Position numbers and translations under genes: made by a program. Positions 9,971 through 17,794 of a stretch of DNA of 17,794 nucleotides are shown one piece after another (within the stretch, counting starts at the first letter, position 1; every line of letters begins with the position of its first letter). Where the stretch lies: the IMG/VR virus record IMGVR_UViG_2671180275_000001. One strand, 5' to 3'. This DNA is from a virus. Taxonomy: Duplodnaviria; Heunggongvirae; Uroviricota; Caudoviricetes. Under the pieces are notes generated by a model. The model was given only the letters and a program-made list of their open reading frames with translations, was not told where the DNA came from and did not search any database.

Positions 9971-10182
9971 CAGAACCTCGCCAGCCGGTACCCGGGATGC
10001 CCCCGTCGTCGTGTAATCAGAGCCGCAAGGCGGCGCTCCCACTCCTGCCGCCCCTGCCGGATCTCAGATAAGTTTTCCATGGTCATCTGCTGACCATTAA
10101 AAGTGACGGATTTTCCGTCCAGCACTGCCATTTCAGCTTCCGTATAACGCTGAATCATGGCTTCAATATCATTCTGATTCAT
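9970..10182 (-). CDS. W: head-tail joining protein, lambda gpW-like
   Basis: 70-aa ORF (MNQNDIEAMIQRYTEAEMAVLDGKSVTF...RRRGHPGY). Lambda W is about 68 aa and ends ...QRRRGPAGFYV. ATGA overlap with the terminase stop, as for lambda A-W. GGAGG lies 6 nt upstream. Confidence 0.6.
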   Translation of the reverse strand: MNQNDIEAMIQRYTEAEMAVLDGKSVTFNGQQMTMENLSEIRQGRQEWERRLAALITRRRGHPGYRLARF

Positions 10183-11291
10183 AACCATCCTCCGGAAGTC
10201 AGCCAGGGGTTAACATCGTCAGTTACTGTTTTCTTCCGTTTTTGTTTTTTAACAGGCGTGGATACCGGTTCCGGTGTGGGTGACGGTTCGGTACTGTCCG
10301 GGACACACTCCAGCCAGGTTTCCCGGCTCGCCCACTCCGGTGCATCCGGCCAGCGGATCTTTTCGTATCCATGCAGAATGACCAGAGCCTCGGCATACAC
10401 CATCAGGTCAAAAGCTTCGTTGGCACCGCGACCCGGCTTACTCCATTTCCCGTCACTGCTCCGCTCTTCATACGTCAGTTCGTCGTAAAACCAGCTCCCC
10501 AGCCAGTCAGGGAAATGCACATAGCCGGGACCTGGCGAGTCACGCCATAACGCGTTATTCACCCTGTCTTTCAGGGCATCCGTCTGAAGAAGCCAGAGCG
10601 GTACATCACCTGCGGCCTGCGCCCGTCGGCCCGTTCGTCCGGTGTTATCAGGGAATGTACGGGTGATCAGTTTTGCGCGCCGGATGCTGTCGCCCTTAAA
10701 CAGGTAAATACGTTTACCAAGGCCATCACGACGGCAACGACGCCAGAATTTATAGGCATTATCAGTGACCCCGTCTTCACCGCCGGAGTCCACCGCCATT
10801 GCCATCAGTCGCATTTGTTGAGAAGGATCGGAGGCCAGCGGCCAGCTTTTATGAAAAACATCCGTCAGCAGGACATCCCAGTCTTCCGGATAGCTGGCCG
10901 GATCAATTCGCTGGCTCTCCCCGTCGCTGTCACCGCGCAATGACTGCGTGATGTTGTAACGATCAATAATCCAGCGTTCGCCACGGCTGCCATAGCCCGT
11001 TACCTGAACCACAAAACGGCGATGACGTCCCGCCTGCACATCCACTGTCGCCACAAGGAAATTAACGCCATCCGGCACACTGCGGGAAGGAACTGGCTCT
11101 GCCCGCTGCTCAAGCAATTCACTTTTTCGTTGCTCCATGCTGGCGCGGGGAAGATAAGGTAATCCCCAGTCGGTATTGATAACCGTCTTGAGTGTCTCTT
11201 CACTTCCGGTTGTCTCGTATTCCTGTTCTGCAGTAAGCAGTTTGTAAACGAGTTGCGAGAGTGTCTGATAAGCAGCTGCCGGCCCCTCCAT
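10179..11291 (-). CDS. A: terminase large subunit, gpA family, C-terminal portion only (5-prime truncated; probable pseudogene)
   Basis: 370-aa ORF matching the C-terminal part of lambda gpA (LVATVDVQ vs LTAGIDSQ; AVDSGG vs WDTGG; NEAFDLMVYAEAL vs NEALDCFVYALAA). Frame is closed by a stop 11 codons upstream of the ATG; no SD; upstream DNA is AT-rich and non-coding. No Walker-A N-terminal domain. Confidence 0.8.
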   Translation of the reverse strand: MEGPAAAYQTLSQLVYKLLTAEQEYETTGSEETLKTVINTDWGLPYLPRASMEQRKSELLEQRAEPVPSRSVPDGVNFLVATVDVQAGRHRRFVVQVTGYGSRGERWIIDRYNITQSLRGDSDGESQRIDPASYPEDWDVLLTDVFHKSWPLASDPSQQMRLMAMAVDSGGEDGVTDNAYKFWRRCRRDGLGKRIYLFKGDSIRRAKLITRTFPDNTGRTGRRAQAAGDVPLWLLQTDALKDRVNNALWRDSPGPGYVHFPDWLGSWFYDELTYEERSSDGKWSKPGRGANEAFDLMVYAEALVILHGYEKIRWPDAPEWASRETWLECVPDSTEPSPTPEPVSTPVKKQKRKKTVTDDVNPWLTSGGWL

Positions 11292-11313
11292 CCAGGAAGA
11301 AGTAAATAAAAGG

Positions 11314-11345
11314 TAACTAAATGATTATAAATAGTTATTTAGTTA
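11314..11345. repeat. AT-rich inverted repeat TAACTAAAT-N14-ATTTAGTTA next to the terminase truncation point
   Basis: Perfect 9-bp arms at about 11314-11322 and 11337-11345, within 25 bp of the ATG at 11291. Confidence 0.4.
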
Positions 11346-11659
11346 TACTACCTCCTACATAGTCCAAGATTTAGTACCTGCTTAAACGATAAAAAAAGAA
11401 ACAAAAGCAGCAATATTAATTAAAAGCTGAATGATGATGGGGGTACGCTTGTGTCTGATTCCGGTAACGCGGTGGATTAATCCCAGTATTTCGGCTTCTG
11501 TCATTGTGCCCCCATCGCGCTGGTGAAGAAAACAAGCTCAGATTTTTTGTAAAGAATCTGTCACGCTAAAAGATGTCGAACAAAAAATAACCTTCTTCAT
11601 CATCTTTTTCACATCAAAATAATTAAAAACAATCACTTACGCACATGATGATGATGACG

Positions 11660-11760
11660 ATAAAATCAAAAAAATGCGCTTTTTTCCGCGCCGCCCGCCC
11701 CGTGTTCAGGCCCACCCCACCAGGAGGACCCGCAAAAAAGGCGGCTGGTGCCGCCTTGTT
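11660..11760 (-). repeat. conserved ~100-bp element, copy A (terminator plus conserved distal block)
   Basis: Aligns at roughly 85% identity with 14198-14299 (ATAAAATCAAAAAATGCGC...TTTTTCCGCGCC...CCGCCCCGTG...CAGGCC...ACCCCACCAGGAG...AAAAAAG + hairpin). Identity is by eye. Confidence 0.6.
11733..11756 (-). terminator. intrinsic terminator after the second protease/capsid gene
   Basis: Minus strand GGCGG-CACCAG-CCGCC followed by TTTTTT, starting 6 nt after the stop at 11762. Confidence 0.6.
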
Positions 11761-11761
11761 G

Positions 11762-13651
11762 TCATAGTGAATCTGTCCCGCCTGATTTGACCATACCGCG
11801 ATAATCCAGAGCTGCCACACCTGCATCAATACGGACTTTCCAGGCCACGCCGTCAACGATAAAACCTTCCTGCTGTTCAAGGTAAGGCTCGTCATTGCCA
11901 TCAAGATAAGCCACCTCGATTGTGTCAGTTCCCTGTGCGGAAAGCATGTACCATTGTTTTTCGCTGATATCATCAAGGCGGGGATCGACGATGATATCAA
12001 GTAGCTTGTGGTACGGGTTAAAGATCCCGCTGTTTTTATCAGCCCCGAAAGGTGCGGTTGAGTTAATCATCTGCAACGCGCGATCTTCCAGTGCTGCCGG
12101 AACTAAAAGGAATTTAGGCGCAATATTCAGCACTTCGCCATTTTTGTCCTTCTGTGTGCGCATCAGGTGACGTGCTGCACTAAGTCCCGATGTTGTCAGT
12201 CCTGCTTCAATCAGGTTGCTGTGTTTTTTGTCAAACAGCGTTATTCCGTCAGAAAGTTTTACGTTGCCTGTAAGCACCAGATTAACCAGATTTCCCACCG
12301 TTCTTGATGCTGCACGGCCCATAGCCATTGGCACCGTTGATAACTGATCAAGGTCATCATTGATTATCGCCTGGCGGGTAATGCTGAAAATATTCCCGTA
12401 AGTAGCCAGCGCGATGGGTTCACCGCGATCGCTGGTGGTGATGTATTTATATTCTGCCCCTTCCGGCACTTTGCTTAACGTAGAGAAACCATTCAGGCCA
12501 ACGCGGCGGGCTTCACGAAAGTTTGAAAGGGAACCTTTTTTCGTCCACTGGCGGAATGTTTCGCCGCTGTGCTCCCAGCCTGCAAGCACTGATTTTTCAG
12601 CGCCACCAGCAAGGATATCGGTAAAATCGCTGCTGCTGTGGTTGAATGCCGCGTTTACTATCTGCGAGCGTGTGCCGTAGCTGCCCGTGCTTATACCACG
12701 ATGGGTTAATGATGCCTGTGCCATATCGAAAAGACTCATCATGGCGTAAGGATTACCGCGTTCGGCCCGTTCGTGACCAAGACGCGCATTAAGCCCCTGA
12801 CGCATGGCATCGCCAGTTATATTGCCGTTATCCGTGTACGCGTAGTAAAGATTTGCGGGGGTGGTTTTGTTTGTTGGCGTTGATTCTTTACCCATAGCGA
12901 GTAAAAGGCGTTCGCGTGCATTCTCAACGCTACATTCTGAATCCGCAAGACAACTTATAGCCAGGTCGTTATATCTTCCGTTGAAGGTGCCAAACAATTC
13001 ACGGATTCCGTTAAGTCGTTCCTGTTCGCCACTGCCAGTTTTCTGGCTGATCATGCTTTTAATTTTTTCCGGCATATTTGAAAAATCTCCGATTCGTTTT
13101 GATTCAATTCGGGCCATTGCTGTAATCGCGGGTATAACCTCATCTGCGAAGCCGTTAGCCTTACACTCATTGCCATCCATCCAGGTTTCCGCCTCCATCA
13201 TGGCGGTGATTTCCTGTTTGCTCCTGCCCGTTCTTCCGGCGTAGGTTTCTGCCATCGTGTCGCCCAGCTTGTCCATCAGGTCAGCAAAGCGGCGAACGTC
13301 GCCCGACACTCCGGCAGTAACACCACGGGGGGTATGTATCATCATCATCGCGTTTTCAGGCATAACGATGTGATCGCCACACATGGCAATAAACGAGGCC
13401 ATAGAAGCCGCCATGCCCTCAATGTGTACAATTTTCTTTGCCGGATGATTTTTCAGGGCGTTATAGATAGCCAGCCCTTCAAAGATGTCGCCACCAGGTG
13501 AATGGATGCGAAGATGGATTTCAGACGCATTACCACACGCGTTGATCTCGTCAGTAAGTGCCGATGCTTTTACACCGTACCCGCCGATCTCGTCATAAAT
13601 GCGCACATAGACAACATCTGCCATAGCCTTAATGGAAAACCATGTTTTCAT
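11762..13651 (-). CDS. second fused ClpP-like protease / HK97-fold major capsid protein (629 aa), divergent paralogue of 6490..8448
   Basis: Same domain order and motifs (RIYDEIG, HSPGGD, GMAASMAS, MMMIHTPRG, PEGAEYKY, FSITRQAIINDDL, TDTIEVAYLDG, KVRIDAGVA). AGGAGA lies 6 nt upstream of the ATG at 13651, which overlaps the stop of the upstream small ORF (ATGA). Confidence 0.85.
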   Translation of the reverse strand: MKTWFSIKAMADVVYVRIYDEIGGYGVKASALTDEINACGNASEIHLRIHSPGGDIFEGLAIYNALKNHPAKKIVHIEGMAASMASFIAMCGDHIVMPENAMMMIHTPRGVTAGVSGDVRRFADLMDKLGDTMAETYAGRTGRSKQEITAMMEAETWMDGNECKANGFADEVIPAITAMARIESKRIGDFSNMPEKIKSMISQKTGSGEQERLNGIRELFGTFNGRYNDLAISCLADSECSVENARERLLLAMGKESTPTNKTTPANLYYAYTDNGNITGDAMRQGLNARLGHERAERGNPYAMMSLFDMAQASLTHRGISTGSYGTRSQIVNAAFNHSSSDFTDILAGGAEKSVLAGWEHSGETFRQWTKKGSLSNFREARRVGLNGFSTLSKVPEGAEYKYITTSDRGEPIALATYGNIFSITRQAIINDDLDQLSTVPMAMGRAASRTVGNLVNLVLTGNVKLSDGITLFDKKHSNLIEAGLTTSGLSAARHLMRTQKDKNGEVLNIAPKFLLVPAALEDRALQMINSTAPFGADKNSGIFNPYHKLLDIIVDPRLDDISEKQWYMLSAQGTDTIEVAYLDGNDEPYLEQQEGFIVDGVAWKVRIDAGVAALDYRGMVKSGGTDSL

Positions 13652-14074: not shown

Positions 14075-14197
14075 GCGCCTGTTTTTTTGTAAATGTTTTC
14101 GGGAACGTTCCAGTGATGAACAAAAAACAACCTGATTCGACACTAAAAATTTTTATTCCTCAATATATCAATAGCTTATAGTGGTGGTGATGGTGCC

Positions 14198-14299
14198 ATA
14201 AAAATCAAAAAATGCGCCTTTTTCCGCGCCCCTCCGCCCCGTGGACAGGCCACCCCCACCAGGAGTACCTACAAAAAAGCCGGATTTCTCCGGCTGTTG
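14198..14299 (-). repeat. conserved ~100-bp element, copy B (terminator plus conserved distal block)
   Basis: Second copy of the element at 11660-11760; directly 3-prime of the PerC-like gene. Confidence 0.6.
14272..14296 (-). terminator. intrinsic terminator after the PerC-like gene
   Basis: Minus strand AGCCGGA-GAAA-TCCGGCT followed by TTTTTT, starting 5 nt after the stop at 14301. Confidence 0.6.
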
Positions 14300-14300
14300 A

Positions 14301-14573
14301 TTAGCTGTCTGGGTAATTACGCCATATTTCATCGCTTACACCATCTATACCCATTTCAGCATAAGTGCGATCGACTACCTTTCTCAGGTCTCCGAAGTTA
14401 TCCGGCGGCTCCGGTGGCCTCTGTGCCTTCCTGGAACATTCCAGCCGTCGCATCGTAACCTGATGCCGTTCCTTGTCTGTCTCCACCAGCTGCATGACTT
14501 CACCCCATCGCGCCGCCGCCCTCCGGTAAAATCCTTTCGCCTCGAGTTCCTCCGCTATGCGGTCATGTATCAT
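14301..14573 (-). CDS. PerC-family-like small transcriptional regulator (90 aa)
   Basis: N-terminal IAEELEAKGFYRRAAARWGEVM matches the AExLExKG-(F/W)-RRAAxRW signature I associate with PerC/Pch proteins. ATG at 14573 with GGAGAG upstream. Confidence 0.5.
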   Translation of the reverse strand: MIHDRIAEELEAKGFYRRAAARWGEVMQLVETDKERHQVTMRRLECSRKAQRPPEPPDNFGDLRKVVDRTYAEMGIDGVSDEIWRNYPDS

Positions 14574-14748: not shown

Positions 14749-14785
14749 CTTTAAGGCGTGCTCTGTCTCTGCGCATTTTGGTTAT

Positions 14786-14990
14786 CTCCTCACTCATGCT
14801 CACTTTTACACCTCACTTTTTAAAGCGTCTCGCTTCGTCTCACTTGATATTTTTTGATGCTTTATGTGTGTGTTTCATAAGGATTTTTTTACTCCTCACT
14901 TTTGAGCATGTATACAGGTGAGAAAGTGAGTAATCGTGTTAATATTTTGTAAAAACCTCACCATTACTCACTTTTGCTACTCACTTTTTA
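14786..14990. repeat. iteron-like direct repeats (CTCACTTTT) flanking an AT-rich spacer; candidate replication origin
   Basis: At least six direct copies of (C)TCACTTTT plus one inverted copy (GTGAGAAAGTGAG) around an AT-rich stretch at about 14846-14892, immediately 3-prime of the helicase-like gene. Confidence 0.5.
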
Positions 14991-16388
14991 CAGTGGTCCT
15001 ACATCATCACCATCAATGTAAATCACGGCGTCTTTTTCCAGTTTGGCTAACCATCGCCGCATATTTTTCACGTCATACCCAAGCCGTTTCATGTCATCAC
15101 GTAACAGCGGGATCGTGCACTTGTCGCCGTTCTGTGTGCGTGAACGGATGCACCCCCATAGTGCGGTATGGTTTTCCGTCTTGTTGCCTGCCTCCTCGAT
15201 GCGTTCCAGTTCAACGGGAGGGCGCGGCTTATCCACCACCACCAGCGACGTGATTAACTCCCCGTCAGCGTCGGTAAACAGCTCCACCACGCGTAAGTCA
15301 TATGCGGCTTCTTTGAGTTCCTCCGCGTCCTTCATTTTGGTGCATGAGATAACCAGCGCTTCGCTTCCTGCGTCCTCCCTGCGTATCCGGTATTCAGCAT
15401 CCAGCGAAGCACGAAATGCACTGGAACCGCGCGCGCCTTTCGTCTCATCCTTGCCGGAATGGTGAACCACCAGCACCGTGGCCCCTGTGCGTCGTTTCAG
15501 TTCGTCACAACCACGGATAAACGCCCCCATATCACGGGAATCATTTTCATCATTCCCACCAAAGCAACGCGCCAGCGTATCCAGAATAATCATGCGTACA
15601 GGTTTACCCGTTTCCCGCTCCACCTGACGGGCAGCGATAACCATTTCATCAACATCAAGCGGGGCAGCCGGAAAGATGGGGCGGTTTACCAGATACAGAT
15701 TTTTCACCTGCTCATCGTGCACAACCTCCCAGGCTTTTACACGACGCGGAACACCTATACCGCCTTCACCAACCACATAGAGAACCGCACCATGTGCAAC
15801 CCTGCGGCCTCCCCACTGGCGACCAGTGGCAACATGGCACGCCCACGATCCGGCAAGGAATGATTTATAGGACCCGCTAGCCCCGTATATGCTGCACAGC
15901 GATACCGCCGGAATAATCCCCTTAACCACGTAATCAAGTTGTGTGTCGTATCCGGCAGATCCCACGCTCATTGGTAGCGTGGTTTTTCGCTGGTGGTGTT
16001 TTTCTTCCCCTGGCTTTTTCCCCCGCTCCCGTTCCAGATATTCGCGCCAGTTCTCCCGCTTCTGGCTGTGCATCCCTTCGGGGTAATAATTCGCATCAGT
16101 TACACCCGCCGCCGCCAGCTTGTGCGCAATGGCATTAATATTTGATGGCCTGATGTGGCCTGCCTTGTACAGCCGGACACAATAGCGCCCCTCGTCGATG
16201 ATTCTCAGGTCTGCCAGTTCATCCAGTTGATCATCAGCCAGCACAACGGGAGGCACATTATCGCCAGCCAGTCGCCCGTCCTGTTCCTGCCACTGTTTCG
16301 CATGTGCCCAGGCATCACTACCCGCAAAAATAATGACTTCGGTCATCTTGTCGTAAGGCTGTTTTTTTAAGTTCGGTGCGCTTTTCAT
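14988..16388 (-). CDS. replication protein: RepA/DnaB-like RecA-fold P-loop helicase (AAA_25-like) with an N-terminal domain of unclear type
   Basis: Walker A YGASGSYKSF and Walker B MIILDTLARCFGGNDEND, with LVVHHSGKDETKGARGSSAF downstream, as in RepA-type hexameric helicases. ATGA overlap with the upstream 99-aa ORF. Confidence 0.75.
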   Translation of the reverse strand: MKSAPNLKKQPYDKMTEVIIFAGSDAWAHAKQWQEQDGRLAGDNVPPVVLADDQLDELADLRIIDEGRYCVRLYKAGHIRPSNINAIAHKLAAAGVTDANYYPEGMHSQKRENWREYLERERGKKPGEEKHHQRKTTLPMSVGSAGYDTQLDYVVKGIIPAVSLCSIYGASGSYKSFLAGSWACHVATGRQWGGRRVAHGAVLYVVGEGGIGVPRRVKAWEVVHDEQVKNLYLVNRPIFPAAPLDVDEMVIAARQVERETGKPVRMIILDTLARCFGGNDENDSRDMGAFIRGCDELKRRTGATVLVVHHSGKDETKGARGSSAFRASLDAEYRIRREDAGSEALVISCTKMKDAEELKEAAYDLRVVELFTDADGELITSLVVVDKPRPPVELERIEEAGNKTENHTALWGCIRSRTQNGDKCTIPLLRDDMKRLGYDVKNMRRWLAKLEKDAVIYIDGDDVGPL

Positions 16389-16684
16389 TTCTTGCCCCTG
16401 AATCCGTTAATCATGGTTTTCAGCTTCTGGATGTTTGCCCGTGCCCTGGCGTTGCTGGTGGGCACGTTATGCGGCGCGGTCTGTACCAGAGAAAAATCAC
16501 GCCGGAACTGATAAACAGGCATCACGCAATCATATTCGTAACCTTCACGGCGGTAAGTTACGCACCGTCCCGCCACGCCCTTAATCATTACCGTACCGCC
16601 GTACTGGTCGCGGTAAATATCACCGCGCGTAAATTTAGGGTGAGTGTTGCCACTGGCAGTTAAGCCAGAATATTTAAGTTTCAT
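16385..16684 (-). CDS. hypothetical protein (99 aa)
   Basis: ATG start; stop overlaps the helicase start (ATGA). No recognised motif. Confidence 0.5.
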   Translation of the reverse strand: MKLKYSGLTASGNTHPKFTRGDIYRDQYGGTVMIKGVAGRCVTYRREGYEYDCVMPVYQFRRDFSLVQTAPHNVPTSNARARANIQKLKTMINGFRGKK

Positions 16685-17540: not shown

Positions 17541-17701
17541 GTTGGCAGCCTCCTCAGTGTGGTTAAGATAACCGCCACGCAAAAGGCTAATTTCGCTGGT
17601 GGCGGACTGTACAGGGTTAGCCTTACCGGACACTGAAGAAACCGGCGCGGATTGCTCCGCCCCCGTACAGCCCACCATTGATAAGGTGTGACTATGCGGC
17701 A

Positions 17702-17725
17702 CAAAAAAACACGCGGGGCGCGTGC
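17702..17725 (-). terminator. intrinsic terminator-like hairpin closing a transcription unit that lies beyond the window end
   Basis: Minus strand CACGCG-CCC-CGCGTG followed by T7. Confidence 0.4.
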
Positions 17726-17794
17726 TGTGCGCTTCAGTTGTTTTCAGGAGGCTAATCCCGACACCCGTTTTATGAGGTGCGCGGGAATCATAGC

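Follow-up and report, generated by a model that had tools for sequence, protein, structure and literature searches.

A 32-bp near-palindrome beside a split terminase gene probably lies in the attachment arm of a satellite embedded in a lambdoid prophage

The closest described systems are the helper-embedded PICIs (HE-PICIs), in which a PICI occupies a lambdoid late gene and has the same orientation (Tommasini, Mageeney & Williams 2023, PMC10111431). The founding member is Eco567.11capE of E. coli NRG857c, and excision has been demonstrated for 11capE (PMC10111431). Insertion involves a short identity block and no replacement sequence, and the attP carries a doubled motif approximately 81 nt upstream and approximately 132 nt downstream of its centre (PMC10111431). 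The 11capE clade is delimited by an integrase score of 400 bits or more against the 11capE enzyme, by the doubled motif tgTGTATTGCantgTGTATTGCa and by 14 catalogued late-gene sites (PMC10111431). [quoted passage not shown]

The window analyzed here is a stretch of 17,794 nucleotides from the IMG/VR virus record IMGVR_UViG_2671180275_000001, in which all genes lie on the minus strand. An inverted repeat close to the start of a terminase reading frame had been noticed in it by an earlier, first-pass annotation. Based on comparison with related loci, the repeat was placed in the int-distal attachment arm of a PICI/P4-like satellite that is inserted, in the same orientation, into a lambdoid prophage's gene for the large terminase, a reading to which we give a probability of roughly 85%. 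The features around the junction are as follows.

10179..11291, minus strand: C-terminal endonuclease fragment of a lambda-GpA-type large terminase of the helper prophage (Pfam GpA_nuclease)
11289..11295: attachment core CATCCAG (coding strand CTGGATG), an identity block and the presumed strand-exchange region
11296..11422: int-distal attachment arm (the attR arm in satellite orientation), from homology to loci L001, L004 and L005
11314..11326, minus strand: IHF-consensus-like element AATCATTTAGTTA, which contains the core-proximal arm of the repeat
11314..11345: near-palindrome of 32 bp (the inverted repeat), from arm complementarity
11338..11348, plus strand: TTTAGTTATAC (distal repeat arm), identical to the arm motif of a tRNA-Pro-type integrase
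11360..11378, plus strand: doubled candidate arm-type integrase site TAGTCC-N6-TAGTACC (minus strand GGTACTA-N6-GGACTA), repeated upstream of int
11383..11505, minus strand: remnant ORF of 40 aa, in which the N-terminal part of a satellite protein of 93 aa runs on into arm sequence
11537..11738: cos-like DNA in the satellite, with homology to helper sequence just upstream of terS

The ORF at 10179-11291 (minus strand) encodes 370 amino acids and matched GpA_nuclease only (Pfam, E 3e-83, residues 1-314). Downstream of it are genes for gpW-like, portal, ClpP/capsid fusion and tail proteins, including a tape-measure protein. The first-pass annotation had taken this terminase to be truncated. Its ATG at 11291 was instead found to be an internal methionine of a split gene (...RIASFW/MEGPAAAYQ), at position 6 of the GpA_nuclease profile, and not the edge of a deletion. 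Alignments with the intact terL of hundreds of E. coli prophages and of phage mEp460 all end exactly at 11295, and everything from 11296 onward is satellite DNA. In complete E. coli loci the order is terL C-terminal fragment, a satellite of approximately 9.5 kb, and terL N-terminal fragment with terS (DUF1441); the latter two genes were located beyond the integrase in L001, L002, L004 and L005. Since related loci carry both halves of terL around the satellite, the terminase is split by insertion, not truncated. In related genomes RefSeq labels the fragment 'terminase gpA endonuclease subunit, missing N-terminus', the N-terminal piece being approximately 9.5 kb further on.

The site of insertion is CATCCAG, at the boundary between the ATPase and nuclease domains. 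The window around the junction reads ...ccggcccctcCATCCAGgaagaagtaaataaaaggTAACTAAATgattataaatagttATTTAGTTAtac..., and CATCCAG is present on both junctions in L001, L002 and L004. The attB reads ccctc-CATCCAG-aatgac, the int side ccta-CATCCAG-aatgac and the capsid side cctc-CATCCAG-gaagaag, while a helper variant of O157:H7 has CATCCAA at both junctions. The window ends before the int end of the element, and the second junction is known from relatives only; there, at attL, the N-terminal frame of terL runs ...FWM and then meets TAG immediately past the core. The identity block is 7 bp and the satellite brings no replacement sequence for terL, which is therefore disrupted until the satellite excises. 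The first-pass suggestion that an upstream module had joined the structural operon here was borne out, the joining being by site-specific recombination at this shared 7-bp core. The repeat itself had been offered as the recombination core; it is not, as the core at 11289-11295 lies 19 bp away from it. The base composition shift described at the junction was confirmed, with a GC fraction of 0.52-0.57 upstream and 0.40 over 11251-11700.

An illegitimate deletion or rearrangement that cut the terminase and left the AT-rich repeat as unrelated junk at the scar was also considered. A single junction is visible in the window, and a real deletion of approximately 470 bp occurred in the same intergenic region. 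Against this stand the base-exact recurrence of this breakpoint in 84 E. coli genomes, in Salmonella and in Rahnella, the position of the other terL half beyond the integrase gene, and the 7-bp core common to both junctions, which together leave this explanation scarcely credible. The deletion itself was mapped by BLAST against L001, L005 and L030 and by translation. The window is approximately 470 bp shorter than L001, L002 and L005, with the breakpoint between 11422 and 11452, and most of a conserved 93-aa ORF (MTEAEILGLIRRVAG...) was removed. The 40-aa ORF had been considered as a small toxin, based on its hydrophobic tail; this was rejected, the ORF being the deletion remnant of the 93-aa satellite protein.

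The integration of a co-oriented element inside a late gene, with a short core and no replacement sequence, is as in HE-PICIs. The gene organization is also that of a PICI, taking the window together with the BRO-N, HTH and integrase genes of relatives, whose satellite genes comprise the capsid fusion, a helicase or primase, an Icd-like gene, BRO-N, HTH and a tyrosine integrase. Those identified within the window are listed here, and the C4/isrK pair is seen at the window edge, in the Bro/regulatory zone of the satellite.

11762..13651, minus strand: ClpP-protease/major-capsid fusion gene of the satellite, late zone (Pfam CLP_protease and Phage_capsid_4)
14301-14573, minus strand: PerC regulator of the satellite (Pfam)
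14988-16388, minus strand: RepA/AAA_25 helicase, replication zone (Pfam)
16385-16684, minus strand: DUF4222, replication zone (Pfam)
17595-17682, minus strand: C4 RNA, P4-type immunity (Rfam, 75.4 bits, above the gathering score)
17704-17780, minus strand: isrK RNA, P4-type immunity (Rfam, 61.8 bits, above the gathering score)

The cos-like region of approximately 200 bp is approximately 86% identical to the Rz-terS intergenic DNA of Stx-converting phages and of the O157 helper prophage, and 11537-11738 is presumably a cos region. On its minus strand is ACGGGGCGGGCGGCGCGG, which we take to resemble lambda cosN. A second cos-like copy (99 nt, 74% identity, 14185-14283 against 11646-11744) was observed beyond the capsid gene, at a distance of 2.5 kb; L001, L002 and L005 have it too, so that there are two such elements in one 9.5-kb satellite. 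Some satellites encode a terS-like gene of their own which is of the helper's family (L004, 14299-14784; L032, 18451-18675; L034, 19084-19614), namely DUF1441 in the terL-embedded elements and Phage_Nu1 in the lambda-E-type one. The satellite capsid genes are also of the helper's type, and this match in both terS-like and capsid genes fits with the capture of helper late genes.

The repeat was present as first described, a perfect 9-bp inverted repeat consisting of TAACTAAAT (11314-11322) and ATTTAGTTA (11337-11345) with a spacer of 14 bp, and its closeness to the start of the terminase ORF was confirmed at 23-54 bp from the ATG (11291). A tandem AGTTAT had been reported as well; two copies exist, at 11333-11338 and 11341-11346, but they are not strictly tandem, their starts being 8 bp apart with a gap of 2 nt. 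The inverted repeat extends to 15-nt arms (11314-11328 and 11331-11345) which are 87% complementary and separated by 2 nt. Over the whole window, perfect 9-bp inverted repeats with a loop of up to 20 nt gave four hits in three places against approximately 0.9 expected, and when the AT-rich stretch was dinucleotide-shuffled, 3-5% of the shuffles held such a repeat, so that by itself the repeat is modestly non-random. It lies 19-50 bp into the satellite, between the core and the doubled motif at 11360-11378.

Of 5426 complete E. coli genomes, 84 have the arm, with a terminase fragment next to it in almost every case. In 80 of the 84 its sequence is identical, an imperfect version of the L001 type; the best match to the window's arm among complete E. 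coli genomes was 89.7%. Owing to this low diversity the E. coli copies carry little weight, and the conservation argument rests on four arm lineages. Scans of viral and metagenome collections gave 23 loci, of which L023 and L028 were unrelated chance matches, leaving 21 true junctions. No excised attP junction was found among these 21 contigs, and an exact-pattern junction scan of one-genome-per-species contigs gave no match. Sister satellites at tRNA-Pro have the same cargo with a tRNA-Pro integrase and are devoid of this arm, their homology to the window starting at 11452; judged from sequence, this shows that the arm (the first ~127 bp) travels with one particular tyrosine integrase and not with the cargo.

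The two halves of the repeat differ in how they are conserved. Positions 11296-11330 are identical in 19 of the 21 other junctions, although part of this stretch was fixed by the search pattern, and L007 and L022 have one substitution inside TAACTAAAT, at an N position of the IHF consensus. The most variable stretch of the arm is 11331-11356. In other elements the distal repeat arm reads ATTGAGTTA, ATTTAGTTG or ATTTTGCTA, differing from the window in all 21 junctions, and nothing evidently corresponding to it occurs in the Salmonella terL-type arm. Among junctions with this arm the perfect palindrome was found in the analyzed window only. The first-pass annotation had proposed comparison with homologous junctions and a search for second copies. 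At homologous junctions the proximal half is kept (in nearly all, two having a single substitution) but the symmetric repeat is not, as the distal arm varies; related copies of TTTAGT type were identified at 11372-11378 and, in complete relatives, upstream of int. With the proximal motif kept and related copies in the attachment site, the earlier finding survives in modified form.

The integrase of the relatives is a protein of 412 aa with Arm-DNA-bind_3 (Pfam, E 5e-23), Phage_int_M and catalytic domains. In the reconstructed attP the doubled TAGTCC-N6-TAGT(A)CC is present on both arms and co-oriented, with copies at +68/+80 and -150/-138 from the core centre. These are centred at approximately +77 and -142, compared with 81 and 132 nt for the co-oriented doubled motifs of HE-PICIs (PMC10111431). 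The int-proximal doubled copy of complete relatives is directly upstream of the int ribosome-binding site, and GGACTA-N6-GGACTA or a GAACCA variant was identified 10-35 bp upstream of the int ATG in every relative examined (41-76% identity). For 11capE, taken as a positive control, the same display showed the published doubled motif TGTATTGC upstream of int. The two marks of an arm-dependent attP of lambda type, an arm-binding domain and repeated candidate motifs on both arms, thus appear to be present. For L038, a relative at 50% identity, the core was not located, the sole shared 9-mer having given an implausible arm, and this locus was used for the int-proximal motif only.

Between the core and the doubled motif of the int-proximal arm, L002 has three direct ATGAGTT repeats (18640-18700). 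The same arm has an IHF-consensus-like site, TTTCAATGAGTTG, and the Salmonella locus L032 has a perfect AATCAATATGTTG. The ATGAGTT repeats and the IHF-like site are candidate excisionase and IHF sites of the long arm. Upstream of int in the tRNA-Pro relatives the arm motifs (TTTAGTTATACG in L030 of E. coli, GGACTA in L041 of Pectobacterium) occur as two direct and two inverted copies, and the helper-embedded clade has the direct pair only in the displayed ~120 nt upstream of int.

It might be supposed from such arrangements that both arms of the repeat are themselves inverted arm-type integrase sites of TTTAGT type, the proximal one then being a site for integrase and not for IHF. Each arm contains TTTAGTTA, which resembles the candidate arm motifs TTTAGTACC and ATAGTCC, and the distal arm is exactly the TTTAGTTATAC motif of a tRNA-Pro integrase of 39% identity. 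Moreover, paired direct and inverted placement is what L030 and L041 have. TTTAGTTATAC was found as a single copy in the window; in L030 and L031 it occurs upstream of int in the two direct and two inverted copies, and in their distal arm once, in doubled form, with the partner TTTGGTTATAC. Other terL-type arms, for example those of L001 and L004, match 9 of its 11 positions. However, the letters that are invariant across att types are TCA-N4-GTTA and not TTTAGT (L034 has TTCAACTTGTTA and L036 TTCAAATGGTTA), the distal arm is not conserved, and the clade-wide motif GGACTA is absent from both repeat arms. An arm-type role for both halves is accordingly considered unlikely. The window's arm may, though, have acquired an exact TTTAGTTATAC site of the tRNA-Pro-type integrase, which would hint at arm-site exchange or cross-recognition between integrase modules on one backbone.

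The reading preferred here, an attachment arm whose core-proximal half belongs to an IHF-type site, is based upon the comparison of aligned attR arms. These represent four lineages with three core types, namely E. coli terL, Salmonella terL, another lambda late gene of E. coli (core TCTCTTTCG) and a Salmonella protease/capsid gene (core ATCCCCAAACAAACAG); in L034 and L036 the core boundary is fixed only to within a few bases. TCA-N4-GTTA and the doubled motif were the sole invariants across the four lineages, the flanks being fully diverged. The TCA-N4-GTTA element keeps its strand throughout and lies 27-31 nt from the core; it is the sole same-strand match in all but one arm, Salmonella L032 having a second. 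The chance of an IHF-like match at this position is approximately 0.9% per arm. In the window, AATCATTTAGTTA agrees with WATCAANNNNTTR at 12 of 13 positions (8 of the 9 specified ones) and has an AT-rich flank, although such matches are common in AT-rich DNA; it is unchanged in 19 of the 21 other terL-type junctions. The core-proximal repeat arm is the TTR end of this element. The first-pass suggestion of an IHF-type site therefore fits the comparative evidence for the core-proximal half, but not for the distal half, which is not conserved, and the conserved half is best read as a putative IHF-type bend site. As the proximal half is this TTR end and the distal half a less constrained flank, the perfect palindrome is probably incidental and not a functional symmetric site. 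The repeat is an ordinary feature of an attachment arm.

The short (P') arm of lambda attP consists of the core, the IHF site H' and the arm-type sites P'1-P'3, and it adjoins int. The arm described here would have the same order, with an IHF-like element ~20-35 bp out (+22..+34) and repeated arm-type sites ~65-85 bp out (+68..+86), and the integrase likewise has a separate N-terminal arm-binding domain. Unlike lambda, the short arm is far from int and has two arm-type copies, not three, and there is no sequence similarity between lambda and the present arm.

The palindrome might alternatively be the operator of a dimeric regulator, either the 67-aa HTH/excisionase-like protein or a repressor, which would control excision or transcription into the terL fragment. 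A 32-bp near-palindrome with a chance expectation of 3-5%, situated at the element's terminus, where transcription would read through into the C-terminal part of terL, is what could be claimed for it. The symmetry is lost in nearly all copies, however, and the L001 type (80 of the 84 E. coli arms) keeps 9 of 15 palindromic positions; a scan of 11100-11900 gave no promoter-like site. Excisionase sites of lambda-type systems are on the long arm, and the long arm here is the int-proximal one with its three ATGAGTT repeats. Nothing was found in favour of the operator that the first-pass annotation had put forward, the symmetric unit not being conserved, and we regard a regulatory site as quite improbable.

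Less probable still is that the repeat is transcribed and folds into a hairpin, serving as a terminator or RNA element where satellite and terminase meet. The plus-strand RNA folds at -12.8 kcal/mol (z = -3.7), but every gene here is read from the minus strand, whose RNA folds weakly (-5.4 kcal/mol, z = -0.3). The prevalent variant of the family is without structure (z = +0.35), there is no U-tract, and a terminator scan of 11100-11900 was empty.

With the repeat assigned to the attachment arm, the following scheme is proposed. From the core outward the arm would comprise a conserved core-adjacent segment, an IHF-type bend site with its AT-rich flank, and a doubled arm-type site. The bend introduced by IHF would bring integrase bound at the doubled site (11360-11378) back to the core, in integration as well as in excision, and excision would restore the terminase gene. 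The circular junction is predicted to read GTACCCTACATCCAGGAAGAAGT, the attP GAAATGTACCCTACATCCAGGAAGAAGTAAAT and the restored attB CCCCTCCATCCAGAA..., while the int-side junction beyond the window is predicted to be ...GTACCCTA-CATCCAG, followed by the N-terminal half of terL and terS.

In several respects the element differs from the published HE-PICIs. Its integrase is 25% identical to that of 11capE and scores 87 bits against it (cutoff 400), and the tested members of its own clade have integrases 22-33% identical to the 11capE integrase. The doubled motif is of GGACTA type and not TGTATTGC, of which no doubled copy was found near the junction, its counts in the window being at chance. The target is a GpA-family terminase, whereas the terminase sites given in the accessible part of the survey are Terminase_1:132 and :246 (PMC10111431), and the core and arm sequences of the present element were not among the attL/attR entries listed in that part of its supplement. 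A positionally conserved IHF-like element, as described above, is not reported for HE-PICIs (PMC10111431).

The nearest non-embedded relatives of the integrase are the chromosomal tRNA-Pro and CP4-57/IntA-like integrases (38-45% identity). The tRNA-Pro PICIs on the yejM side (L030, L031) resemble the present satellite in their capsid fusion, helicase, DUF4222, PerC and cos-like region, 93-97% identical from 11452, and in having doubled arm motifs next to int. They differ in their integrase/att module, in their chromosomal tRNA target and in their motif, which is TTTAGTTATAC in E. coli and not GGACTA. All seven of the sampled relatives at 44-76% integrase identity lie within phage late operons, the targets being GpA terL (Salmonella, Rahnella), a protease/capsid fusion, a lambda head-tail or tail gene, a PF09950 major capsid gene and a tail-tip region. 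On balance these data slightly favour a second satellite-integrase lineage directed at late genes of prophages, independent of the 11capE clade and with its own GGACTA motif and a position-locked IHF-like site. This integrase clade is probably previously unreported; a limited literature search for terminase-embedded satellites returned only the Tommasini paper and a preprint, which is not proof of novelty.

The arrangement, a helper-embedded satellite, is a known one, here with a target site and an integrase lineage that are not listed in the accessible part of the one published survey. The satellite, with its place in a terminase gene and its uncatalogued integrase clade, extends that phenomenon modestly. 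Its target is the packaging motor gene of lambdoid prophages of the mEp460/Stx type, and the element is present in approximately 1.5% of complete E. coli genomes, including strains of O157, O121, O145, O111 and O103. Pseudogenes labelled 'terminase gpA endonuclease subunit' in RefSeq are thus often not decay and can be one half of a reversibly split gene, and in Shiga-toxin-producing strains calls of prophage completeness may err where terL is split in this way. If the tropism for late genes is convergent in two clades, the targeting of late genes by integrases is open to comparative study.

Two minor observations concern the satellite genes. Just past the stop codon of the satellite capsid gene, at 11733-11760 (minus strand), GGCGGC-ACCA-GCCGCC is followed by a run of six T, which looks like an intrinsic terminator; it is absent from the consensus-scan list and its fold has a z of -1.1. 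Just upstream of the RepA helicase gene is a 49-nt direct repeat (14777-14825 and 14945-14993, 73% identity) rich in CTCACTTTT units, which may represent iterons or an origin.
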